A DNA stretch of 60,603 bases, counting the filler, from Platydemus manokwari (taxonomy: Eukaryota): the NCBI GenBank assembly GCA_037951405.1. It is 5 parts of 5 records of this genome, joined end to end, with 100 filler letters (N's around TTAATTAATTAA, not from the genome) between each part and the next. Parts side by side here need not be neighbours in the genome. Positions count along the whole stretch, not along the records: positions 1 to 8,862 come from JBBMOY011337650.1; 4 more parts are not named here. One strand, written 5' to 3'. Made by a program: the position numbers and the translations under genes. Position 1 is the stretch's first letter. Each line of letters starts with the position of its first letter. Of the stretch, positions 1-60,603 are shown piece after piece. The notes under the pieces were generated by a model that was not told the DNA's origin, ran no database searches, and worked only from the letters and a program-made list of their open reading frames with translations.

Positions 1-944
1 ATAGTTTATTATCAGAGTATCAACTAAATAATCGACCTAGTGTTTTAAAAGATGGAACTGGTGTCTATTCAGAAAAAACTAATGTTAACACAATTTAATA
101 AACGAAATTATATTGTTGAAGGATCTTTATTATATTATTTCATTGAACAGGGAATGATTTTAATAAAAGTTCATAAAAAACTAAAATTAAAAAAATCACG
201 ATGGTTAGAAGGATATATAAAACATAATATTGAACAAAGGACTAAAGCAAAGAATAAAGGAAATAAATTTGGAGCAGAATTTTTCAAACTTTTAAATAAT
301 TCATTTATGGAAAAACATGGGAAGATGTTAGAAAAAGATTGAATATAAAAATAGTTTCAACTGATAGAGAATCTCAAGTACTTGCATCGAAATTAACATT
401 CAAAAGAGCAAGGATATTCACTCCACAAATAGCAGCGTCTCATATGAAAAAAGCTTCAATAGAATTTGATAAATTTAATTATGTAAATTTGTTTTATGAT
501 GTTTTAGATAAATTATTCAAAGATAAATATAAAATACATTTTGGTGACACTGACAGTTTATTTATAGATTTTTTTTTAAATTTTGATGAAACATGGAATG
601 ATGTAGAAAATAAATTAAGACCATATATAGGAAATGATTTAGGAATGTTCAAAGATGAAGTTCCAAATGAAACAATAAAAACTCAATATTTTATTAAATC
701 AAAATCATATTTACAACAAAATGAAGCTGATTATGATAAAATATTAATAGAACAACCTACCGGAAAAATAATAGATGATTTTAAAAATAAAATGAAGGAA
801 TGTAAAAATTACAAGAAAAAACAATTAAGAAAATTAATTGATGGTTATAAAAGAAAACAGACTTCGGATGAAATAAAAGATACCATAATAACCTTATTTA
901 ATGAAACAATAAATAGATATAATAGAGCTTTAACAGAAAAATAA
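1..944 (+). pseudogene. Protein-primed family B DNA polymerase (Polinton/adintovirus pPolB), C-terminal part, frameshifted
   Basis: ORFs 52..342 and 339..944 carry PolB motif B (FFKLLNNSF, cf. KLxxNSxYGK) and motif C (FGDTDSLF, cf. YxDTDS), plus LGMFKDE. There is a frameshift near 305-340 and the gene is truncated at the contig start. Confidence 0.85.
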
Positions 945-1353: not shown

Positions 1354-1809
1354 TCAATTATCTAAACAATATAAAACATACATAGATAATTGTCCATATA
1401 GTTCCCCCTCTGCTTGTATTTGAATTTTATTATAAAGAAAATCAGACTTAATCTGGATTTCAGCATCGGACTCGGACTTTGTCCGACCTTTGGACTTTGT
1501 GTGGCCTCCAGTATCTTCACGTTTAAAAAAATTGTAAATTTCTGTTGTCGGTAAAATTCCATAGAAATCAAAATAAATTTTATGAGGTTTACTTATTGAA
1601 ATCCAATGCGAACCCTTTTCTTTTGTGGTTTCGAAATTCATTATTATATATCGACCGCAGGTCAACTTTAATTTATCCCTCATAATAATTTCAACATCCA
1701 AGTTTATATCATTAGAAATATCCATTAAATCAAAATTAGTAGTTTTATTAATACCATACTTAGCTAGAAATTTTAATAAAGCCGAAGGAATTTCATGCCC
1801 AGAATCCAT
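1354..1809 (-). pseudogene. Adenain-like (C5) maturation cysteine protease, catalytic Cys apparently mutated
   Basis: The protein has IMNFE...KGSHWI (His), YFDFYG (Asp; cf. YFDSFG) and QIQ...LYGQLSMY, where CGxxC is expected. The probable start is ATG 1809. Confidence 0.8.
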
Positions 1810-2224
1810 TTTTAAAAAATAAAAAATAAAAATTAAGGCAACCTTCTTCAAACTCTGACTACGTCCGACTTTCAGACTTGCTTGAGTCCGTAGGAAGGGA
1901 GCTTCGTTCGTCAAGCTTACTTAAGATTCAAACCTGTTTGAGATGAAGTCTCAAAAATATTTCTTCTCCAGCAAAATTTTTTAAATTACCATTTTGATCT
2001 GTTATTTTAAAAATAATTTCACAAGAAAAATAAATAAAAAAACAAATATTTATTTACAAACAATGATAATCCAAGAAGTCATACAAGTATGACTTATAAT
2101 AGAGTCCTTTCCGAGGATTGGATTCTAGTATCACAGGCGGCTAGTTGCAAAGTTTCTTGGTGACTTGGTGTTCTTGTTATTCCGAACATGATTAATCTTG
2201 ACAGAGTCCATTTCTATAAAATCC

Positions 2225-6287: not shown

Positions 6288-7875
6288 TGTTGGGATAATA
6301 AAATAGAATATAACGAATATTACATAGAATTAAAATGACCACAATGCGAATATACAATAACAATACAATCGAATAATAATAATTCAAATTAACAATTCAA
6401 TTAACAATTCATCTCTGCAAGAATCTAAAATTAATCGAATAATAATAATTCAATTAAAAAAATATAATAACAAAATATTTATTCTAAAAATAAATAATTA
6501 TTCTAAAAATAAAAAATAGTAATAAATAAATAAATAGGAAATTAATCTAAAAATAGAAAATGAGAATTTTCAAAAAAATGGAAATAAAAAACTACAAAAA
6601 TAAACGACAGAAAAATTTAATAAAAAGTTTAATAAAAGAAAGAGTATAAAAAATCAAATAAAAATTGAAAACGGGACACAAATTTTAGAATTTACCAATT
6701 CCGGTAATTAGATTAAATCAGTTCGAGGAATTAGTTCCAGTTTAAAAACAAAATTTTCCAAAGCAGAGGAGATAAGGCAATTAGATTGAATCAGTTCAAG
6801 GAATTAGCTCCAGCTCACTCAGAATAAATTAGTTCCTATTGGCACCCAATCTCTCAAATCTCTCGCTAATATTTCTATAAGCATTCAGATTATCGATTGT
6901 CGAAACTAATTATTGCCATCCTTACCCAGCCATATAAAAGGAAGAAGAGAAATTAGAAAAGATACAACACAACAAAAAGAAAAAGAAAGAATAAGTGCAG
7001 AGCCGAAGATACGCAATCCAAAATACAGAAGAGCTCAAATAATATCCTCCAAGAATAAATTCTTGTTCGAAAATCTTCAAGAAACGAGAAGCGTAAGCCT
7101 TTTGTCATTTTAATTTCTTTAAAGATTTTTGCTTAATTATAAACAACTTTTGAATATTACTCTAAAGAATTTATACTGTGATATTGATTATTATTTTATC
7201 ATAAATAAAAAATTGATTATAAATCATACTAATTAGAATATTAACAAATACCAACAACCCAGAAGAGTTGTTCCGGTATTGACAACGTTTAACCTACCTA
7301 ACCATTTCGTTCACCAACAACGCTGTTCTGTTGTTCTGGTGATTCGCATCTCAAACTTATTAACTAATTAAACAATTCCAAATACAAAGCTATTCTAGAT
7401 TGAACCCAGTTTAACTAGAGTCTAACTTTCCTAAAATCTAAAATATAAAACAAATCTGGTCTAAGAGGTTACGGTTCCACGTAGGCCTAATCTCCAACAA
7501 ATTAGTAACTCAGGGCCCTTACCGGGAAACCTAAGAGACCACATATAAAATCACACACTCTATCTACATAGAGTCAGTAAAATCTTTAAGTCTTAATTAA
7601 GCGTAAAATTAGGAAAACTCCATAAGAGTGGTTATTTGTCATTATTAAAACGTTTTATCAAACTTAATTTATTCATAGATTGTATTTGATTATTTGAATA
7701 TATATTTCTAATAAACTCTTTGTTTTCATAGGATAGTTATACACAGTACCTTTGGAGTCAGGTGTTATGAAAATAATAATAATTATTGGACACACATAAG
7801 TTGGGATAGAATCGACTCACGATAACCTCAGATCCTAGACTTAAAACGTAAACTTAAAGCATATAAACCCCAACA
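6288..7875. mobile_element. About 1.6-kb non-coding LTR-like element (TGTTGGG...CCCAACA)
   Basis: 7-bp inverted termini, flanks ATAT/ACAT, an internal ~35-bp direct repeat at about 6705-6815, and clear homology to 25248-26128. Confidence 0.6.
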
Positions 7876-8289
7876 ACATCATTGATCTATTATTATATAT
7901 TTAATAAATTTTGCATTTATTCTTTGTGTTTATTTTTGTTGTTATTATTCGTATTAATTTATAAATACATTATAGAATTGGAAACGAATAAGATTATTGG
8001 TGGATCATCACAATATCCTATTCAATATTACATTAAATAGAACTTGTGACAAAAACACAACCAAAAACCAATCAATATAATAGCTGTATTGAATTAAGCA
8101 TCAAATAAAACAAGTAGGAATTCAAACAATATAGCGTTAGGATTTTTTTTACGAACAAAAGGTCAGGGTTTGCCCATTTGGTCTTAATTATTGGTTTTGT
8201 AAAAATATTATTGGCATGTAGTGTTAATCACGAAACATAGAATTGTTGGGAAACCATTAACCACTTCATGCTCTACTCCACCTGTAAAA

Positions 8290-9890: not shown

Positions 9891-10811
9891 TGTTTAATAG
9901 TTTTATTGGACCACTTTTACATGTAATTTGATTTGTTATCAATTGTTTTATTGTAATTTGTCTCTAAAGCTTTCTCTAACACATATTCATCGCATTACTT
10001 TCTTATATTGTCATTGTAAATCTGAAAGTTATCATGGTAAATCAATTTTTTGTTTAGGAGTTAACTTTCATATTTTAGAAATAATAAATTGTTTCATTTA
10101 CTATAAGCATCGATTTTTTATGAATAATTTTTCTTTATTATTATTGTTTTCAATATAGTGATTTTAACCCAACACATTTCAAAAAACATTGTACTAAATT
10201 TGTGGACTTAATGAAATTTTTTACAAATAATTAATCTTTGTGATATATTTTGTAAAACTAAAATTTCGATTGGTTTATCTAATGTGTTGGTTAAATGATA
10301 ATACATATTTCATGGAAATTAACAACTCAGGCCTCTGTCTTCTTTCATAACTTTTGTACGGCGCTCGACTTATTAAAAAAAGGTCTAATTCTTTTAATCA
10401 ACATTACTATCAACATATTTATCAATATATTTACTATAGAGAATTAATTCTAAATTTTTTCCTCTTTATCGAAGGTCATAGTAATATGTAAATAAACAAT
10501 GAACATGAATATTCAATTAATTTCTATTAGACTATTTGTTAACTAATACATTAGTAATTTAATAAAGGATTATAAAATAAAAGATTATTTCATATGAATA
10601 AAAAGTTATTGAAATATAATATTTAAAATAGGAAAAATATTAAAAATAAAAGTTCTTTTATGATTAAATTACTTTTTTAAATATGTGTTAAACCCAAATT
10701 TTTTATAATACTTATTTTGTTAACAATTTTTATTTATTTAGTATGCTTGTTTAAATATGTAATTGTTTGTAATTTTTATTTTACTTTTTAAATATAATAC
10801 ACTTATTACCA

Positions 10812-11603
10812 ATGTCATCTGATATTAAAATCGCAGTTGTATGTTCTAGTAATCAAAATCGAAGCATGGAAGCTCATCATTTCCTCAAGTATTAAGTGTT
10901 TATCCATAAATTATTTTAATTAACCATATATATGTCAGCAAAAAGGGCTATGTTGTTAAATCATTTGGAATTGGTTCTCAAGTCAAACTACCGGGTCCTA
11001 GCCAAAATGAGCCAAATATTTTTTCTTTCGAAACCACATATGATCACATGTTTGACGAATTGTCTAAACGAGATAAAGCATTGTATATTATCATATTTTT
11101 ATTATTATTGCATTAGTATTGTTGTGTTAGATACACCCAAAACGGGGTGTTAAATATGCTAGAAAGAAATCGACGAATTAAATCCAAACCTGAGAGATTT
11201 CAAGACTCCACTGATTTTTTTGACATAATTGTTACCGTTGAAGAAAGAGTTTATGATGTTGTTTTGGAATGTTAGTTTTACAATGAAATCATATTTAAGA
11301 TTAGGCAAAATCTCTGTGTTTAGGTTTGGAAAACAGAGATAACAAAATGGGTCACAGACCAGTTCATATAATTAATATTGATATTCAAGATAATCACGAG
11401 GAAGCAACTTTAGGAGCATTTTTGATTTGTGATTTAGTTTCTATGGTTGAAAACTTTTTCCTTTTATATTTGCTAATATATCGTTCTATTTTAAATTTTA
11501 GATTGTTCAATGTGACGATATAGACAATGACATAGACGTGGTAGTACAGCATTTCTCAGAACATTCAAATAGGCATCTACTGCATACTGTGTCTTTTTAC
11601 TGA
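10812..11603 (+). CDS. SSU72: RNA polymerase II CTD phosphatase Ssu72
   Basis: Exons 10812-10888, 10939-11082, 11131-11270, 11324-11445 and 11502-11603 (GT-AG introns of 48-56 nt) give MSSDIKIAVVCSSNQNRSMEAH...DIQDNHEEATLGAFLIC...LLHTVSFY*, with an intact CX5R motif. Confidence 0.96.
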
Positions 11604-12480
11604 ATATATAAATTATTTTGAACATTTTAATGTTATTAATTATTTACTTGGTAAAATCAATTAATTTTATTTGTTTAAATGTTTCAAATTATAAACTATC
11701 AAAGTGGCCATTTTAAATATTGAAATATGTTACATAAATAATATTATTTGTATATTGTGATTTAATAAATATTAAACTTTTAAAATAATTTATATTTGAC
11801 TTGATTTTTGTTTGAACGATAAATTAATGAATGTACTAAACTTTGATTTTATTAAAGTATCAATTTTGAAAAGGGAATGAATTGACATTTACGTTTTAAT
11901 ATTTAGTTGCGATATCATCTGAACTGTCTTAATAACAAAACTGATTTTATGTTATTACAATTTAAAAATTTTTCAAGGTTAGGTTTTTAAATTAATGTTT
12001 GTCTATATTACTTAAAGTTCTATTGATCGTTTTATCATATTCTCGATTAGGTTTTAATTAACCCCATTGATTTAAATAACAGGGATTTCATGAAGTAAAT
12101 GATATAAATATTTTATAAGATCATTGCTTGATTAGTGGCTAATTTATATATTTCGATAATTTAAGTCTTATTTTTCAGTATTCAATCAAGTTCAAATTTT
12201 AGTTGACCTGTGTCGGAATTTGTTTCATTATTAAATTGCATCCATTTATTGAAATTATTCAGTATTAATTCCTACTATTTTTATGAAATCCATTTAAAGT
12301 CTTTATGACAATTTGGCCCATACTAATTTCGTAATCAATTTGTAATGAAAGTTTGAGAATAATTTTATAATGATCTTTAAAAAATCAATAATTTCATTAA
12401 AATGTATTTCTATTAAAATATCACTATAAAATTATATTTTGTCAGTTATAAGCTTCACAAAATTCAACAAATTTAATTTC

Positions 12481-42600: not shown

Positions 42601-45600
42601 TGAGTAAATCAATTAAATGAGGCTAGAGTAACTTACACTAGAAAAAGACCAAAAAGAGTACGAAAATAATCAAGAATCTAAATTACATCAGTGAAGAAAT
42701 ATGAGGAGGAATAAGGTATGAGAATCACTGGAAACCGATGGACAGGAGCTACAATCAGAGTTTCAACGAACACATGAAGATAATGAAATGAATATGGAAG
42801 TCTTGGGACAGTAAAAAGAATATGGGAATTTAGCTCTTACATGGTGGACTTGAATGCGTTGCAAACAAGACCAAAAATATCAATCAATTATATAACTATT
42901 TGGACTTTAATATAATAGTGATGATATCATACACATTGTGTTTCATTATCTCGATCTTGATGCCTTAATCTTGAAAGTATTGCATATTTCCATTTAATTG
43001 TATTTTTTATCATTAGGTCAACATTATAATTAATGTGATTTTATAGTAACTGTTGTGTTTTATGATATGTGTTAATAAAATATTACACAACTATACCGAT
43101 CAATAATGATTAATGGAGTCGAGATCCCACACTAGATAGAAATAATACTTAATACTTTATTTTTCTAAATATAGCCAAAAATAGATCAAAAGATGAATAT
43201 AGAATAAATAAAATTCAAAAATAGTACCACAACAAAAAATAGTATCAGGTATTAAAGCAAAAAGAGAAAAAGATGAAAAGCAGATGAAGAAATGAAGGCA
43301 GTGTAAATAAATTCAAAAAAACGTTGCAGCACAGTGTTTGAAAAACGAACTCAAAAATGTCTACAAATTATTAAACGTCTACAAATTGATTGCATACGAA
43401 ACTAGAATGTTATAAATTTCTACATGGCATTATTCGATTGGCATAATACAAGTGGAATATTCTCAGAAGAAATCTATATCATAGCATAAAATAAATCAAT
43501 ATTTAAGAGAAGAAAATTTACAAAAACAATGAATTGGCTTATTGAACTTGATTTGAGAAAATAATCAAGTTTATTATTTTAATTTATTGGAAATGATTAT
43601 TGTTCTTATTAAAATAAAAACTTTTATTTATTTTATAATAATCTCTTACTTACGTAATCTCTAAAAATTTAATGGATTAGAACCAGTAAAATCGTCTTAT
43701 TAGCCAAATTAAATATTTTCGTTAAATCTATAACTATTATGATGGGTTGCCGGCACTTATAGACCAAACCCTCAACAAGCTGATCAGGGACCAGCACCCT
43801 TGTGGCGCAAGCACAGGAGACTTAAAATAAATTTTATTGAGAACAACAGAATCATATATTAAAGACAATTAATACCCGGTTATTGTCTCTTTAATTAACT
43901 ATTATTATTTGACTTAAATAATTGTTATCATAATATCTATTTTGTAATTGCCACAACCAATTATATTTTATTTTATATTGATAGCATTTGTTATCGATTA
44001 ATGGGAGTCAGGAATGTTTACATTTATTATTCGAATTTATATTCATAATTAATATTCTGCTTTGTTAGTTTATTTTGATCAATGTTTTATCAAATATGAA
44101 ATTCCTTAAAGCATTTTGTATAATTAAGAATCCATAGAGTACCAGCAACATGATGGGATTATTTGCTGATTTCGTTTGGCTCCAATAAACAATTTATGTT
44201 CAATGATGTGCTCCTTAAATAAATTCAAGGTGTTAATAGTCGATTATTTATTCCTGAGAGAATAAGAGCTTGGAACATTCTTCTAATTTTTATTCTCAAA
44301 TTCTTCGAAAAGAAATATTAAATTAGTGTTTGAATACGATTCGTTTCAAAACGCTTGATATTTAACTCAAATCTTTGTTAATGATCTTCTTAGCAAGTCG
44401 TCTGTATTTATGTTGCTGTTATCCAATGAATATATTTTTTTATTAATTAAATCTGTCATGATTATCGTTGCTTTTAATCCGAATGATTTCCTGATGCCCG
44501 TTGTTTGATTTATTAATTGAGAAGACATATTTTGGCCGAGTCACACATTTTGGCATAATTATTGAATGGTTATTTTAAAAAATGAATGAATATTCTGTAT
44601 AATTGATTTTAATGTATTCATTTTCCCGACATATCTGATTTTTATTTTGATTCTTGTTTCAATTATCATGGAAGTATTTATTAGATTATCATATATCGAT
44701 ACGTAACTACATGTTGGATACAAGGATACATAAATAGACATTCTTGTACAAAAACAATGGGCGATAATTAAAATATAAAATAAAACTCAGAAACTGCAAT
44801 AGATAAAAGATCTCAATGAATTTCATCAAGTAATTTTCATAATGTTTACTTTCATCCTTATCGAATTTTATTAACTAAGCAAGTTTATTAATACTTCTTA
44901 TTATGTGTTTTTTATATTAATTAGATAATTATATTTTTTAAATGAAGTCAAAAAAATATTTATAAAATAAAATTAGGAAATAAATTTCAAAAATCATTTT
45001 TCATATTCAAGCCGAAGATTTGAATCTACCGAATGATTGATTAAAAATGAGACCACAATTATTAAAAGCAAATAAAAATGTTGTAATTTTTTGAGTATTA
45101 TATAAATCAATTATTAGAATATTAGAAAGCTAGGAAACATTAAATAACGGAGTTAAACCTCGGATATATCCGAAAAAATAGATGAAATTAAAATTAAACT
45201 TTTGACTAAAGTGCACTCAGAAACTGCGTTTGTTTGCTATGGTGATTGTACATTTTAGACTTCAATTTTGGAGAACAATTCGATAGAAAATTAGTTGAGA
45301 AATTAAATAATTTATTAAAGGCTTGGTTTCAATGGTAAAAGATAAAGCAGATAAAGAAATATTATTTTTAAAAATAAAGTATTTGTATGAGCTGTTCAAT
45401 TATTTAGTTGGGAACAATAATTGTGTCGGTACAAAAATGGAGCCGTTTTGCAGGATAGTATTAATTTAATAAAAAAAACCTTGCTTAAATAAATGTCCGA
45501 GATTTTATATGAAAAAATGAAAAATCTCTTTAGAACGGAGATATTTTAAAATAAATCGAAGAACGATTGTGTTTACTTAAATAATGTTAAGGTTACCGAA

Positions 45601-48263: not shown

Positions 48264-50542
48264 CTAAATTAAATATATTGATTAAATATTATTTTATATA
48301 TTAATTGTTTTGTCTGCATCCCGGATAACAGGAAAGTACCCGATTCTATATTATTAGGAGGGTCTATAGGTTTAAGCAGGTCCAAACTTAACACAGGAAT
48401 AATAAACTTTATAATAAAGTAAACTGGTTTTTTCAATTAAAATCTCACTAAAGTATATAGGGATGGAATTACGAATAATCGATATTTTGTCTATCAATAA
48501 TTAATATTGTTTCACTTTCTGTTTAAATATTAAAAATCATAATTTTAAATGCTTTAATAAAATGGGAAAAAATTAATGATGATTTTGCAATTTCAATTTT
48601 AGAAACTTAAATTACAAGATCATTTTACAAATACAAATCAAAAATGGTGAATAAAAATTTTAAAAAATAACATCTTAGTTAAGCAAAATTATTATAAATA
48701 TCGTTACTTTACTTATTTAATTCTTCTACAAATGATTTGGATTGATAGTAAAGAATTCCAAAACTGAAATTAGTGCTGTTTGAGAGACTCTTAAGAAAAT
48801 CTTATTAGCAAATCAATAAAAATTTCTGCACTCTTTTATTCAGTAATATTTTGAATTTTGTTGGATAACAATTATTTTTCCAAAATAAAAATATCCACTC
48901 ACAAAATTTAGTCATAATAAAAGTTAAATTCCCAGAAATTATGGAGTCTGTGTGAATCGAATCTTTGAAAGTTATGCCCATCTCACAGTGGGTATCTTAA
49001 GTTTTGTTTTCAATCATCTTATATTATATATAATATTGCTAAAGGTGTAATCAGAACTGTTATATAGAATAATCTACTCTCACGTAGAATAATCAGTCCA
49101 AACTATATGTTCGTTTATTCAGTTTTCTCATCTTCATTCTGTTAACATGAATCTCTTATGAGCAAGCCATAATAGGAAACATTTTAATATTAGTTTAGGT
49201 GTTGATTATAGCGATTGTTAAGAAAGATTCCCTTCATTAACGATACCACTGCTTATTTGTCTATTACTCGTTATTATAATTGTTCATTATCAAACTTTTG
49301 TATCATGTTATATTTGTTATTTAATAATTACTATAAGTTATCATTCATACTTATCAACTGTAAATTCATTAACATTAATCCAAGCTAAATAAAAAGTATT
49401 TAACTCAATATATTTTAATTAATTCAAGGTAGTAATCACCATACTCGAATTAGTAATATAAATCTTCTTAATCGTACCAACAACAAGAAAACCAATTAAG
49501 ACTTGAAGTCTAAATTTCAAAATCGAATATAGAGCGTTTCTAAATGGAGAAAAGTTTTGTTCGAGGAGAAGAGATAAATCAATGATTTCCCAATTGGTTA
49601 AATATAAATCCAAACATTCAATAGAAGTTTAATTGATTACAATCTTTATAAATAACCATGAATCTTGACGTTGCTAAATCAGTTCTTGATTCCATACATT
49701 TGAATGTATTATTTGATTAGTGTTCACTATAAATCAGATCATTTTGTTTTTATTTATCAATGAAATATTGTTTTACAAATATTTTCGATAAATAATGATC
49801 CAGAATTATTATTAAAATAATTTTGAATTCTAATTAATTGAACGACTTTTCCTTATTGCATGATATTCAAATTTAGACCGATAAAGATTTGCAAAAAACG
49901 TTTTATGAGGCAGTAATAAATATTTAATGATTACATAAATTTACAAAAGTCAATTTTTACAATAAGTCATCCCGATTTAACAAACAAATATAACTTAACT
50001 TTAACTTAAAATTTAATATTTTTTAAACCAAATCTGCATATTCGTGCAACATTTTTATTATTACTATTTTTAACATTTTCTATTTAATCCACTATTTAAA
50101 CTTGTTTTATTTCCAATCAACTTATTTGTTTATCTTAACGCCAAACGAACATCATTCCAATACGAATGGATAAGCACGAGATTAGTCATTTCACAAGTTT
50201 AGAAATGGATTTATTTAGTAATCGAATTACAAATTAATTCATCACCAAAAACGAAACATGACTAACAATCTAATGAATAAAAAAAAATCAACATACATTG
50301 TATGAACAAAGCATCATTTTATAATATTCATGAAAATAATTCTCAAGGCCAAAATTCAAAAATAACAATTTTAATTTTTATTTAATAACATCATTAACGC
50401 ATAAATGTTTTATCTTTGTAAAAATCCATACAAATGAAATTGACTCTTACATTTAATTCTCATTGCAATTGAGCTTAAACATAAATATAAAAATCTAACT
50501 ACATGTATCAATAACGTACCTATACTATATAAAATAATAAAT

Positions 50543-51042: not shown

Positions 51043-54000
51043 ATTACCAAACCAATTTCGATAACTAATAATATATTATGTCATATAAGTATATATACAA
51101 TTTATAAATTAACATTAACATAATAAAGAAAGCAAATTTTTTCTACCTACCGATCGATATTTAACAAGAAAAATAATTTCTTCCCCGATTTATGTAGGGC
51201 AAATGAAAGTTATTTTTAGAAGCAAAATAATTACTATTAAGTTTTAGAGAAGATAATCGTTTTTCAATTATAAAAAATAGTCTTTTATGTAGATCATGTT
51301 AAATGCTTCTATGGTTTTGAATTATGTTTTAAATTTATCGTTTTTAGTTCCAAAAGACTGATTTTCTAAAGTTAAATGTTTTGAACTATATTTGATAAAA
51401 TTTATAATTTTATTGAAACTATGGTTGTGTTTTTATTTAGAATTATCGAATTTATTTAAAACCTATCGAAATCCAGTAAGATATCAACGTTTGATCATAA
51501 CATTTTGAATAGTGACAAAATTTATTTGATATTTAAGCATTATTATGCTAACCATTTATGTTTTTAAAATAAATATTAATAGATGTGGCAAATCTATATG
51601 TAAGTCTAATGAATAAATCATATCACTGAACATTCCGTGAGAATCACAAAACATTGAAGGATATATATGTATTAATGAGTCAGATTAGACGTTACAACGT
51701 CTATATCTTCTCTTAAGAGAATTCTTTTCAAAGATTCGTCTATAGTTTTGATATGTTAATAAATATCGTTGTTCTGAGTTGGAGTACAGTTACCAAACGA
51801 TTTGAGCTCTTTCACAACTAGATCGACAATAATCAGCTGTAGGTAGAGAATATATTCAGTTGGTTGGCATTGATCCAAGTTATTTAAAGGAATAGATATG
51901 AAAATATCTGAGTAAAAGCCTCACAAATCTCAATTAGTAAAGTCCAATTAAAATGCAAGCCTCGTTTAGAGTAATTTTCTCTATCGTCACATTAAGCTAG
52001 GTCTTGAACATTGTTCTCGCCTATTTAGCTTAGAGCAGCTTGATTATTTAATCAATATATTGTGAAGATTGGTAGCTTTGTTTTCATGATCACTTTGAAA
52101 TGTGTGATATTATTTCAAAAATTCATTTGTTCAAACTCAGAATGTTCAGTTTGTTACATAAGAATTATTTATTTTCTGACCCATTCTTATAGATATTTTA
52201 ATCTATTGTTCCTACCCTTCGAATATGAATTGAAATAAATAACCTGCAACATGCCCACAAGCTGTATTTACCTTTATTTAACCAATTCTGTTTACAATAT
52301 CCTTTTACAGAACGAAATATTTTAATGAAATCTTATGCAAAAAGTTAGGGCTTTGACAAAACAACTAAATCAAACTTAATTTTATACTGTGTTGTTTGCC
52401 GATTTTTATGACAATTGTATTTTATACATGACAATAAGCATTAAATGTATATTAAATTTTATTATCTTCATTTTTATTCAATCAGCATTAATTGTTTATG
52501 ATTTGACAATCCTTGGAATGATTTAGTAAAATCAGTTTGAAATGATACTTATAAAATAATATATTGAGGATTTATAATCATTATTATCCATAAGTATTTA
52601 AAATAATAATGGTATCAATATAACCCATTTAAGACAAACTCATTAAATACCCTAGATAATAAAGTAATTCATAAAATAACAACCCGTGATATATTGTCAC
52701 GCAAAAACATTGACAAAGAAAATTCCATTAATTATCGACCACAACAAATTCAGTTAAGTTAATCATACGGAATTTCTTTCTGTATAATAAATTTAATCGT
52801 AGAGAATTTCTCTTCGCGATAAATACATTCTAGCATGAAAGCGAAAAATTCATGGCATTAAATTTAATCATAGAGAACATCTACGAATGACTCATTGCTG
52901 CCTACATGAGGCAGCAGCTACTGTTAACGCGGACACTTTGACCCACATTACCAAAGTTATTATACACGGGGATAGGACACATTTTGCAAGTAAAAACAGC
53001 ATAAGGAGATCATTCAGTGTTCGAGATCAGGATTCCATATATGCCCAGTACTTTACCGGAAGACTCCAGAGCAAGATGTGCTTGAGCGATATTATATCGT
53101 CTATTTATTATTATCGAGTTTAACACAAAATCTTGCAAGGTAACTGATTTTACTCCAAGAGTATGGAGTTTATAAACCGTCATTCTTAATCAAGGAATTG
53201 TTAAGATCTGTTGTAAGATTTTATATATAGTGTAGCATTAAAATTAATTTGTAATTTTTATGTTATTTAGTTGTCAATTTTTATCGCTGTTATTTAATAA
53301 TAAACAAATGTAGTAATAAGCATTAGTTATTGATTAAATAGGGATCATAGGGATCATAGTTCGTTATCATTGGTGTTAGTAATTTAAGAAATTAAGTTAA
53401 AGTACACAAACTAAGACTGGCAGTTAAGATAAATCACCATTGTCAAACTTATTGCCTTCATAAAACAACGTTTTACGAGATGAAGATAATAATAATCATA
53501 AGGTTCACCAGTCCTATAATCCTAATCAAGAACTCATTGAGACTGATTAAGACAACAGTGATATCAAATAGAAATAAGATTAATAAAATAATAAAACTAA
53601 TAAGGCCAGAATGTAACACGATAATTATCCTAAATTTAAATGGATTGGACCTAGTCAAATTATTCTAATTCATAAATAAATTTCTCGTAAAATCACTTAC
53701 AACCAAAAAGGGTTGCTGGCACTAATATGGCTAATCCTCACCAGGAACACTTGCAGCATAAATAGCATAACGTTTCTCGATGCATTTGCATTGAAATTAT
53801 AGAATTTAATCCAAGGTTTTAAACATATCTTTATATAGTTATTGATTCTGACAGCTTATTTGAATAAGTCAACTATTTTAAATTTAGAGCTTATTCTAGA
53901 AATGTTAATAATAGTCGGAATCATGTTATGTGGGATCTCTGAGATCACGGAAACTACAAATCTCATGTGTCGAATAACAGATGGTTGATCAATGAGAAGT

Positions 54001-55748: not shown

Positions 55749-58700
55749 TAAAATTATGAATCGCAGTTAAGTTAATTTAAAATAAAAAATAATACCAAAA
55801 TAAATCTTATATTTCAAAAATAAAACGAATGTAAAATCTTTGTAAGTTACTTAAACAAATGAAAATATGATAATAATGATGGTACATTATAATTTCCTTT
55901 TAAAGTATCATGATGTTTAAATTTTCTCGAAATATCTCCAATTAATTATTTCATAATTATTTATGGAATATTAATTTTATGATCATTTCTATGAAAACAA
56001 TAACATATTAAGATAAAAATAAGAATACAATCATAATAATATAAATTAAAATTAAAAAGAATAATTTAAAATTATATGTTAAATAACATTTGTGTTTACA
56101 AAATTTAATAATAAGCAAAGAATGAGTTTTAAAAAGCCGTTACTATAATAAACACTAACGAAAATAATACAAAAACACAATTTATAAGAAGCTTTTCATA
56201 GTGTGAAAATTAGAGTTCAATGGTCAATTAATTTCTTATTAAACCCCGACTTTTAATTTTCCAAACACAAATAAAACAAAGTTTATTTTCAGTATCTTTA
56301 ATCAATTATAAAATCACAACGTACTCTCGTTTTGAAACTAAGTAAAGCTTAAATATTTACAAATCAAATAAATATTGATATATTATATTACTAAGCTATT
56401 GGTTCTTCATCAATAATATATATTAGGGTTTTACGTACCCGACTTATACTTGATTAAATTCTTATTTAATAAGTCTGTTATCACTATCGTAAAGTTTGCA
56501 ATATTCTCAATTACAAATTCTTCAATGTTTGAAATTTCGCGTCGTTGATGACCAAATTTTTGATCTACTTATTTCGCAGTGGTCTGTGTTTAAAATGCGA
56601 TGCTTTTGAAAGTTCACAAATCTGTCTATCATTTTATGTTTCACTCATATTTCTTCTTAATGCTGTGACTCAATTTTAAACTTTATTTTGGTGCTATTTT
56701 GTTTGTTTAAAGAATTTGTATTGTTTATCTTCATTCTACATTATTTTCTTGTTTTTGGTTTGGATTTCACATAGATCTTATAAAGAATTTTTCTTGTCTT
56801 CATATTATTTATTTTTAAATTATTTTTGTTATTCATGCGTTTACAGTTTTATTTAATCAATATTATCATTATTGATGTTAATAATTTTCTGAATTTTCTT
56901 CACTCAAAGCACCAGTTTTATTTTTTCATTTTTATTACACTTAACAATGTTTTCTATTTCTACATTATCTACAGTTTGAATCAGTCTCTGGAGTTCCGTT
57001 AAGTCCCTTAGGTAGTAAGGTAACCTTACATTTTTTCATATTACGTACTTCAGCTCTTGTATAGAGGCAGTGGAAATACTTAGCTAATGTGTTTATTTTT
57101 ATTGTAAATACAGTCCCGAACCTCATTATAATTCATTTCACTCGGGTTCTCACTATTGTTTCTTAACTTATCAGTCTGGATGTTACTTAAACTTGATGAC
57201 ACAGAAAAAGTTTGTGGATGGCAATCAATGATCTGCGGTCCAAAATGTTGGGATGAATTTTACTACTCGATCAATAACCAAACAGCAGTTTCAAATATTT
57301 ATTGCTACTGACACTTATACAACTAGCAACAAATTAAAAAATTAATGCTAACGGAAAATCCCATATCAACATAAGGGGATATCTACCAATACACTATAAT
57401 GCAATTAATTACACGGTAATTATTGAAAGAAACGCTCTAGGTGACTTTACCAGTGAATAACCTTGTACTTACTAGGCATTTCAAATATAAACTTGGCCTC
57501 TTTATGGCACTAAAATGACTTTTATATACCAGAACCGTGAAAGTTAATTAAATAATCAAACTACACAAGCAGAAAGCTACTATCAGACATGTTTCTACAG
57601 TTAGTTTGTCAATGATCAACTAGTAATTGATTCCGTAAAGTGTGTTCCAGTGAATTTGTACAAATGTATGTCAAATTACTCAATGCCCCTTCTTTATGCA
57701 AAAGTTTTCCGTATCGAGATATTCTGTGTTATTTACTTAACTATACATGATATAATAATGTTTCTGTTATTTAAATTTCGAAGGATGACATTTCTTGATT
57801 AGTATGTTCTTGTTCTTTTTGATTATCTATTTGTGGCTGTTATATATATGATAGAAATGATATCAAAATTGTGAGAATGCGGACCTCGGTATAACACTAC
57901 CTCAAACCTTCACTTGGAGACTCGATAGAACTCTATCTCAGAGTCGTATTCTCATTAAATTATATTCAAACGCAAGTTCGACTCAAAAACAATATTATAT
58001 TGTATTTAAGATTTGACAGACATGCTATTGGGTACAAACTTACAATAGATAACAAAATAAATAGTACACAATATTTTTCCGAATTTTATTATGAGTCACT
58101 GAATCAAAAATTGTAAGATCCCAAAATAGAATTATAATAACATAAGAATAAAAACAAAATTATTAAGCTACAAAATATAACAACCATAGCATTTAGATAC
58201 TAAAAACAGTAAAATTAAATAACAATATTATAATGAAGCGAAAAACCAGAAGATAAAAATCATAACAGAATATTAGATAAATACTGAGCCGCCCTTAACA
58301 ATTTATACAGATATCGAGAATTGCGTTAATTCTCATTAGTAATTCAACCAGGATGACAATAAGTGTTGATAAACGAATTAATCATCTAGGTATTTAAACC
58401 CGGCGCTGAACAAGTTCTGGAAAAATTGTTCGAAAGGTAAAGAAAGGAGATTTAATTTGAAAGATTTGATTGAATTCACTGAAAAGGCCTCATCACAAAC
58501 ATTGTTATCACTACAATCGTTTGTCACAAGATTTTCTCGAGAATATTACATTCAACCCATCTTCCTTTACTTTCGTTATTTATGAGAAGATTGTGTCCTA
58601 AATTCAGAAACTTGTTAAACAATCAATAAGTTATTTTGATAAATTGTAAATTCATAGAAAGTTGAATTCTAATTTTTATCTTTTTAATAAACCACAAAAA

Positions 58701-60129: not shown

Positions 60130-60603
60130 ATCTAAGAATGTGTAAATATTATATTTTCTCTCATAATTTCCAGTGAAAACTTCTAGTCAATCAGTATATT
60201 TAGACTCCATTTCCGTTGTTATTACTTTCTGTGACTAAAATATCCCGATTGTTTTGCTCCTCATGCTCCTTATTCATATCTATAAGCCTCAACAAATAAA
60301 TAAAGGTGTAGTTGGAGTAATGAACTGTTATTGAAATCCTAAAGCCTTATAAACCATTAACAAATCATTCAATAAATTGACATTTTCCTCATTCTTGTTT
60401 TTGAAAAAGATTGAATATGCTTTTCATTGTTACTCAATGTTGAAGATAAATTACGGTTCTTAATCAATTTCGTGATTTTAGGTCCAACATAAATGCCTTA
60501 TTTAAGTTTTACTTCATTAACAGTTGCTAATATTAGGCTGAGTCAAAAGTTATTCATGTTTTTTAGTTGTTTAAAGTTTTTGTTTTACCAAATCATTTAA
60601 ACA
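60130..60603 (-). mobile_element. Chapaev3-like (CMC superfamily) transposase C-terminal remnant
   Basis: KLK*GIYVGPKITKLI...NEKA...DLLMVYKALG...EHEEQNNRDI...QRKWS follows the pattern KLKEGIFVGPQIR...SDEHGERFHQDI...YQGKW. Confidence 0.65.

Follow-up and report, generated by a model that had tools for sequence, protein, structure and literature searches.

The window, the whole 60,603 nt stretch of Platydemus manokwari DNA analysed here (assembly GCA_037951405.1), is a pack of five stretches of 26–28% G+C from a fragmented 911-Mb genome. Positions 6288–7875 of its plus strand contain a solo long terminal repeat (LTR) of 1588 bp, assigned to lineage A, which reads TGTTGGGA...CCCCAACA, has the ends TGTTG...CAACA and is flanked by ATAT and ACAT. 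Copies of the LTR begin with TGTTGGGA, and the sequence that they have in common stops sharply at CCCCAACA. Inverted TG...CA ends and a short target duplication are present; among 11 two-ended copies, the 4-bp flanks were identical in three and one-off in four (chance 6e-5).

Several candidate signals lie along this LTR, all on the plus strand. A TATA-like box at 6933–6941 is a putative promoter element, and TATAWAA was found 330–700 nt upstream of the core described below in 22/25 lineage A and 17/26 lineage B loci, counts made in AT-rich sequence with no chance control. A candidate splice-donor-like GTAAG (7093–7097) is kept in 18/25 A and 15/26 B loci, and AATAAA at 7204–7209 is one among several candidate poly(A) signals. 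A hairpin island upstream of the core at 7312–7341 belongs to lineage A and has related words in B, and a GT-rich island at 7630–7640 is common to lineages A, B and C and to a relic at 33314. We also observed, at 7800–7808, an internal repeat of the bases with which the LTR starts; in A and B it lies ~70 nt short of the right end and follows GCATA-like letters, like those at the purine-tract junction. Rearranged copies were seen as well: in L129/L149 an integrase end is fused to the middle of hairpin H2, in L147 an inverted LTR piece precedes the core, and L029/L132 is a tandem partial LTR.

Copies of the core in the window and the genome

The sequence-only reading of this DNA had singled out a core recurring at 7394–7574 and 25939–26119 and, more diverged, at about 43668–43823 and 53629–53760, and all four plus-strand copies were upheld. 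By BLAST within the window, 7392–7583 and 25938–26128 share 76% identity. A covariance model trained on 42 natural copies, including the first three window copies, matched 7380–7590, 25926–26135, 43657–43859 and 53625–53812, all on the plus strand, with 174, 169, 153 and 67 bits. An nhmmer profile of natural copies recovered the same four with E values of 1e-51, 7e-53, 2e-24 and 1e-11 (profile starts 7388, 25932, 43665 and 53633), and gave no match below E 1.7 in the reversed window used as a control. The second copy lies in a lineage B LTR that has lost its right end (25248–26230, plus strand; core 25940–26119), and the third in a lineage C LTR with decayed ends and approximate limits (43107–44150, plus strand; core 43672–43821), in which GGAGTCAG is found at 44004. 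The fourth is a C-type fragment (53625–53812, plus strand) with hairpins H1 and H2 present and H3 lost.

Two further partial copies had been proposed on the minus strand, and neither survived. The one at 48310–48445 scored 8–9 bits with the covariance model, which is chance level, and ~75 nt at its distal side come from the terminus of a young, unrelated repeat present at many contig ends; the one at 56982–57035 was absent among the matches listed (300 of 433) and matches no fetched locus. A weak relic that had been missed was found by the covariance model at 33402–33540 on the minus strand (E 0.009). It forms part of a more distant, weak LTR relic at 33165–33540 (minus strand) with an H1-like stem, the GT-rich island and TGGAGTCA; besides the core, two LTR islands are present in it.

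Other features were noted in the window. The segments 48270–48345, 33033–33106 and 60530–60603 lie at contig ends and represent termini of young high-copy repeats; the second is identical to the reverse complement of the third. A near-perfect inverted repeat with ~55-bp arms at 32701–32850, which gave a spurious miRNA match, is likely to be a MITE. Polinton-like frames are located at 26367–27056 (minus strand), 300–941 (plus strand) and 1357–1920 (minus strand); a double jelly-roll capsid (PF21738) lies beside the broken right end of the lineage B LTR, and the Polinton-like polymerase and protease frames were recognized by eye, without Pfam support.

Own-genome searches gave 304 candidates for the first core and 331 for the second (40 scored for each), 34 for the third and 14 for the fourth. 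The core loci sort into the three LTR lineages A, B and C, in a set gathered with window cores from which lineages beyond these may be missing. Flank-versus-flank BLAST of the first 60 core loci revealed no common internal region, so most core loci are solo LTRs, and those in the window are either solo LTRs or truncated ones. A metagenome scan with a loose pattern returned 80 loci with flanks, none of which matched the core profile. In one sequencing run (contigs, of unspecified kind), depth was 10,000–15,000 over 7442–7552 versus 41–530 over 6850–7404, as expected if the core is what LTR copies have most in common; these depths have no bearing on expression, transcript ends or splicing.

The claim that the surroundings have diverged more than the core was also supported. 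The share of matched bases in other lineage A loci was 0.81–0.93 over 7388–7587 versus 0.09–0.75 elsewhere in the window LTR, and in lineage B loci it was 0.72–0.74 over the core versus 0–0.40 elsewhere; lineage C was unalignable at that stringency. No other part of the LTR is as well kept as the core, whose apparent conservation is inflated because the loci were chosen by core.

Hairpins and covariation

Four hairpins were defined in the core, all on the plus strand. H1 (7394–7419) consists of 5 bp, a bulged A, 6 bp and a CCA loop. H2 (7465–7494) has 7 bp and a 16-nt loop that contains the palindrome TAGGCCTA in 28/31 A, 18/31 B and 0/29 C cores (46/62 for A and B together). H3 (7513–7540), which had gone unnamed, has a purine–purine mismatch and a tetraloop cap. 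H4 (7557–7574) is the terminal hairpin of the sequence-only reading and occurs in lineages A and B, without a counterpart in C.

The stems quoted in the sequence-only reading were found where they had been described. The structural alignment comprised 42 copies (12 A, 12 B and 18 C) chosen from 91 cores. In the window B copy, H1 reads TCTAG-A-TTGAAC-CCA-GTTCAA-CTAGA, and in the C copy L043 it reads AATGG-A-TTGGAC-CCA-GTCCAA-CCATT; four pairs are changed on both sides, all still paired, and the bulge and loop are retained. One pair of H2 forms an A-U, G-U, G-C series across A, B and C, and a second changes from A-U to G-C in only 6/18 C copies, with A-C in 5. H3 shows A-U to G-C, G-C to C-G and two wobbles.

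Of 747 cells in H1 and H2, 87.6% were paired, a level reached by 0/500 shuffles in a test that ignores the relatedness of copies; slid controls gave 21–49%. Among pairs of the three hairpins that differ between B and C, 10/12 keep their pairing, compared with a rate of 0.223 among arbitrary column pairs (p ~1e-5), and H1 alone, which was defined without C, keeps 4/5 differing pairs (p 0.01). This covariation rests on three lineages and ~ten independent changes; all lineages were in view when H3 and its inner register were chosen, and a two-column gap was moved by hand in lineage A. When helices that every lineage could form were scanned for, H1, H3 and H2 ranked top and no clear pseudoknot compatible with A, B and C emerged.

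Thermodynamic folding gave a weaker signal. RNAalifold recovers five pairs only, all of H1; single-copy folding z-scores were modest (–0.5 to –2.3 on the sense strand), with the sense strand favoured in 3/5 copies, and the best fold of the window copy replaces H2 by an alternative. An AAGAG/CTCTT helix can form in A and C, not in B, and a long-range pairing of the H2 loop with the 5′ arm of H3 is compatible with all three lineages. In most A and B copies the base of H3 carries GGGCTC (window 7513–7518), which complements GAGCCC of the primer site described below; this six-base complementarity may be chance.

Taken together, the covariation holds, and the hairpin pairing has very probably been under selection. 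Other parts of the earlier structural proposal fared less well. The enclosing TGGTC/GACCA stem stands in A and B (6–12 of 12 copies per pair) and fails in C, where three of its five pairs form in 0, 3 and 1 of 18 copies. The argument that G-U wobbles point to selection at the RNA level is weak, since G-U and A-C cells number 8:12 in A, 18:12 in B and 72:36 in C, and 3:1 at the level of lineages.

The retrotransposon to which the LTR belongs

The LTR almost certainly belongs to a GAG-ENV-POL Ty3/gypsy retrotransposon with autonomous-type genes, a kind that has been described. The sense strand of the element is the plus strand of the window. A search pattern with TGG placed past the right end of the LTR identified junctions at which the LTR end is followed by TGGTGAGCCCGACGTGAT, an 18/18 primer site complementary to the 3′ 15 nt plus CCA of a tRNA-Trp gene of the same genome; the tRNA pattern was found at three places in the genome, one of them called tRNA-Trp. 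A gag with zinc knuckles starts ~10 nt past the primer site, followed by a class III fusion-type glycoprotein (PF24664), protease, RT, RNase H and integrase, with Pfam matches to zf-CCHC and to each of these. The pol order PR-RT-RH-INT is that of Ty3/gypsy, and PF24664 lies between the zinc knuckles and protease/RT in L128, L129 and L179.

Single contigs link the core to these genes. L338 carries TATA, the whole core (E 9e-40), TGGAGTCAG, the LTR end, the 18-nt primer site and the start of gag; L177 carries, in order, the core, LTR end, primer site, gag, glycoprotein region and pol. A polypurine tract precedes the LTR start in two cases, L104 (a core-bearing LTR) and L181 (after pol). The 5′ and 3′ LTR junctions sit on different contigs, and none of the fetched contigs has two LTRs around one interior; no C-type LTR joined to coding sequence was found. 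The LTR context suggested by the sequence-only reading is borne out by LTR ends, target duplication, primer site and polypurine tract. Its description of the element as non-autonomous is unsupported, because the same LTR adjoins primer site, gag, glycoprotein gene and pol on single contigs. Readings as Penelope/retrozyme, DIRS or a Ginger-type DNA transposon were set aside on the strength of the primer site, purine tract and gag-pol.

All coding copies examined in the core-bearing family are broken by stops or frame changes. The genomic copies are dead, and the covariation is a record of selection in past active lineages. In L177–L182 of this family, extra frames lie downstream of integrase; their beginning is hydrophobic and they match nothing in Pfam. 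The best protein-database matches of the element are at 53% and lower, mostly to unnamed proteins.

A distant relative (L319:1515–9998 and L320, G000:C1468085) contains a single open frame of 3304 codons in the order zinc knuckles, fusion glycoprotein, protease, RT, RNase H and integrase, that is, gag-env-pol in one polyprotein, followed by a 677-aa frame without a Pfam match. The L319 LTR forms a stable stem that contains similar words (z –2.85) and does not match the core profile; we do not claim homology.

Position in the predicted leader and complementarity to the primer tRNA

Measured from the core, the TATA-like box lies ~460 nt and the donor-like GTAAG ~300 nt upstream, and the LTR end and primer site follow ~300 nt downstream. 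In the span that begins 300 nt ahead of the core and runs to the LTR end, the sense strand contains 41 ATGs versus 218 expected in 19 A copies and 38 versus 140 in 12 B copies, observed/expected ratios of 0.19 and 0.27 taken over related, non-independent copies. The other strand gave 0.80 (A) and 1.17 (B), and the flanks 0.87 and 0.83. This sense-only depletion therefore appears as the mark of a scanned 5′ leader. The core would be R/U5 sequence of the LTR, predicted to lie in the 5′ leader. In that sense it does match an LTR sub-region, one of the outcomes that the sequence-only reading had named as refuting; another, a lack of covariation, is not what was found.

Between the core and the primer site, the conserved 9-mer TGGAGTCAG (7753–7761, plus strand) is an exact complement of nt 27–35 of the host tRNA-Trp, in the anticodon arm. 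It is the longest Watson-Crick complement between LTR and tRNA-Trp, and was matched by 6/500 shuffled tRNAs (last 200 nt). An 11-mer containing it is present, within two mismatches, in 21/25 A, 19/26 B and 6/15 C loci, and in A and B the 9-mer sits in the loop of a small CACCT/AGGTG stem that is weak in the window copy. At primer sites collected by primer sequence alone, TGGAGTCAG was found within one mismatch upstream of 10/26 and downstream of 0/30. The positive sites span three mutually unalignable groups, one being an element that protein search had brought up first; the complement is missing at 16/26 tRNA-Trp primer sites, and other groups are without it. We also observed that a second tRNA-Trp-primed LTR group (L133, L134, L139 and L146) has its own, different GC-rich hairpins upstream of TGGAGTCAG.

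The available text of PMC3185550 describes pairing of the HIV U5 A-loop with the primer anticodon and an extra contact of Rous sarcoma virus with tRNA-Trp. By analogy, TGGAGTCAG would be a candidate extra contact for the primer tRNA, like the HIV A-loop. We found no description of an anticodon site in gypsy LTRs, or of this hairpin motif, in the open-access literature.

Possible functions of the core

Retroviral Psi lies past the primer site, and the signals of Ty1 extend into GAG. Because gag starts ~10 nt past the primer site in the present element, a packaging signal would have to sit in R/U5 or in gag; the usual Psi site would be missing and the structured signal would occupy R/U5, or else gag. 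We hypothesize that transcription from the TATA-like box at 6933 would yield a leader of ~900 nt, scanned by ribosomes as far as the gag ATG, in which the core hairpins could serve as a Gag-binding packaging/dimerisation and priming scaffold at the 5′ end of the genomic RNA. Being downstream of the donor-like GTAAG, the signal would be confined to unspliced RNA. The primer tRNA would bind the primer site and, via its anticodon arm, TGGAGTCAG ~110–130 nt upstream. A comparable arrangement is described in the available part of PMC4974528 for Ty1, whose structured 5′ end holds dimerisation, packaging and priming signals. We consider the scaffold the likeliest role of the core, with a probability of roughly 50%, so the packaging or dimerisation signal proposed by the sequence-only reading is still the preferred candidate.

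The main rival, which we regard as conceivable and on balance unlikely, is that the hairpins steer 3′-end formation, hiding or spacing an AATAAA between H2 and H3 and bringing it near the GT-rich island, such that polyadenylation would be suppressed in the 5′ LTR and allowed in the 3′ LTR. AATAAA is present in the scanned core span of 23/31 A, 14/31 B and 8/29 C cores, is situated between H2 and H3 in the majority of A cores and in many B cores, and is followed by the GT-rich island ~60 nt past H4, which is kept in all lineages. In animal Metaviridae, AATAAA and a GT-rich stretch are reported as the best-kept LTR motifs, and stem-loops as accounting for conservation in long R regions, in the accessible portion of PMC3601003. 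However, the hexamer between H2 and H3 is missing in lineage C and in the A copy of the window, a second AATAAA, at 7204, is itself followed by GT-rich sequence, and H1 is distant from either.

It is less probable still that the hairpins aid translation or nuclear export of unspliced RNA as an IRES, shunt or CTE-like element. Retroelements do employ such elements, and the long leader with a donor-like site upstream would suit one, but the strong ATG depletion fits plain scanning and is not needed by an IRES, and no known export or IRES family was matched in Rfam. An action of the stems in DNA, either as single strands during reverse transcription or as palindromes that bind protein, or their being functionless leftovers, we judge improbable: most pairs are Watson-Crick and can fold on either strand, and the wobble polarity is weak, yet pairing, bulge and loop size stay while the sequence changes, unlike a protein site, the three lineage-level wobbles are G-U on the sense strand, and neutral drift leaves the 10/12 kept pairs unexplained.

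We further considered whether H2–H3 might constitute a new class of small RNA that cleaves itself or acts as a switch. Carried in the LTR of an autonomous gypsy element with an envelope gene, it would act together with a U5 loop displaying a codon, by which the anticodon of the primer tRNA would be read; we regard this as very improbable. The related proposal of the sequence-only reading, an undescribed ribozyme, taken here as self-cleavage by H2–H3 in the manner of the hammerheads in retrozyme LTRs, deserves hardly any credence. The covarying stems, the retention of some unpaired bases in the H2 loop and the purine–purine mismatch in H3 could be read in its favour, as could a word in the H2 loop of 21/31 A cores that we take to resemble the HDV L3 motif. 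However, that word is absent from B and C, and the nested double pseudoknot of HDV cannot be completed, since P2 and P1.1 cannot form, there being one base between P1 and P3 and no GG behind P1; nor is any pseudoknot kept in all lineages. The earlier statement that hammerhead and twister consensus are lacking agrees with word counts in the 91 cores: in a scan with catalytic motifs, the hammerhead CUGANGA plus GAAA core occurred in 0/91 on the sense strand and 3 on the other, and twister, pistol and hairpin ribozyme words in at most 6/91 per word and strand. A search of Rfam, as the sequence-only reading had suggested, matched no family at the window cores, in 7200–7900 or in seven loci, the lone hit in 7200–7900 being chance (12.8 bits versus a cut-off of 65). 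With no Rfam match and no ribozyme words kept, the proposal gained no positive support, and it fits poorly because the core lies in the middle of the leader of the genomic RNA, where a cut would part the cap from gag in an element with genes of its own.

Relation to known retroelements

The GAG-ENV-POL order with a gB-type ENV is known from Nematoda, Bryozoa and Platyhelminthes, according to the available text of PMC13524379. The errantiviruses with HSV/gB-type ENV of Chary and Hayashi (PMC13524379), for example Smed_errantivirus_1–6, have the same gene order, and elements of this type share with the present one the gypsy pol order PR-RT-RH-INT and a multi-copy state; the L129 glycoprotein piece looks homologous to Smed_errantivirus_1 by eye, with no score. 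The likeness to gB-type errantiviruses rests on gene order and domains. For the six Smed elements the accessible text of PMC13524379 gives no primer tRNA, LTR coordinates or LTR RNA structure, whereas the present element has a tRNA-Trp primer, LTRs of 1.0–1.6 kb and extra frames past pol without a Pfam match.

At the level of the LTR, animal Metaviridae (PMC3601003, in its available part) offer TGTT...AACA inverted repeats, a TATA-like box, AATAAA, a GT-rich stretch and stem-loop-linked conservation in long R regions; their LTR sets average 170–700 nt, and that part of the source gives no covarying motif or anticodon site. Ty1 and retroviral 5′ ends resemble the present leader in their several hairpins, a palindrome and an extra primer-tRNA contact, as far as the available portions of PMC4974528 and PMC3185550 describe them. 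In contrast to these, the present signals show no sequence kinship with them and all lie inside the LTR, and the anticodon contact would be a 9–13 nt match to tRNA-Trp. Plant retrozymes (PMC4918200) likewise have a structured RNA motif within the LTR; they are non-coding with a hammerhead, whereas the present LTR belongs to a coding element and has no hammerhead.

A review of Ty1 and Ty3 describes, in its available part, even the Ty3 RNA structure as uncharacterised, and we found no account of cis-acting RNA signals of invertebrate envelope-bearing gypsy elements in the open-access literature. Retroviruses and yeast Ty1 have mapped cis-acting RNA signals; what is added here is a compact, covariation-supported model of a leader. 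The result is a useful annotation with testable detail and not a new kind of system. If true, the 9–13 nt anticodon-arm contact in three unalignable LTR groups would extend the principle of the HIV A-loop to distant retroelements.
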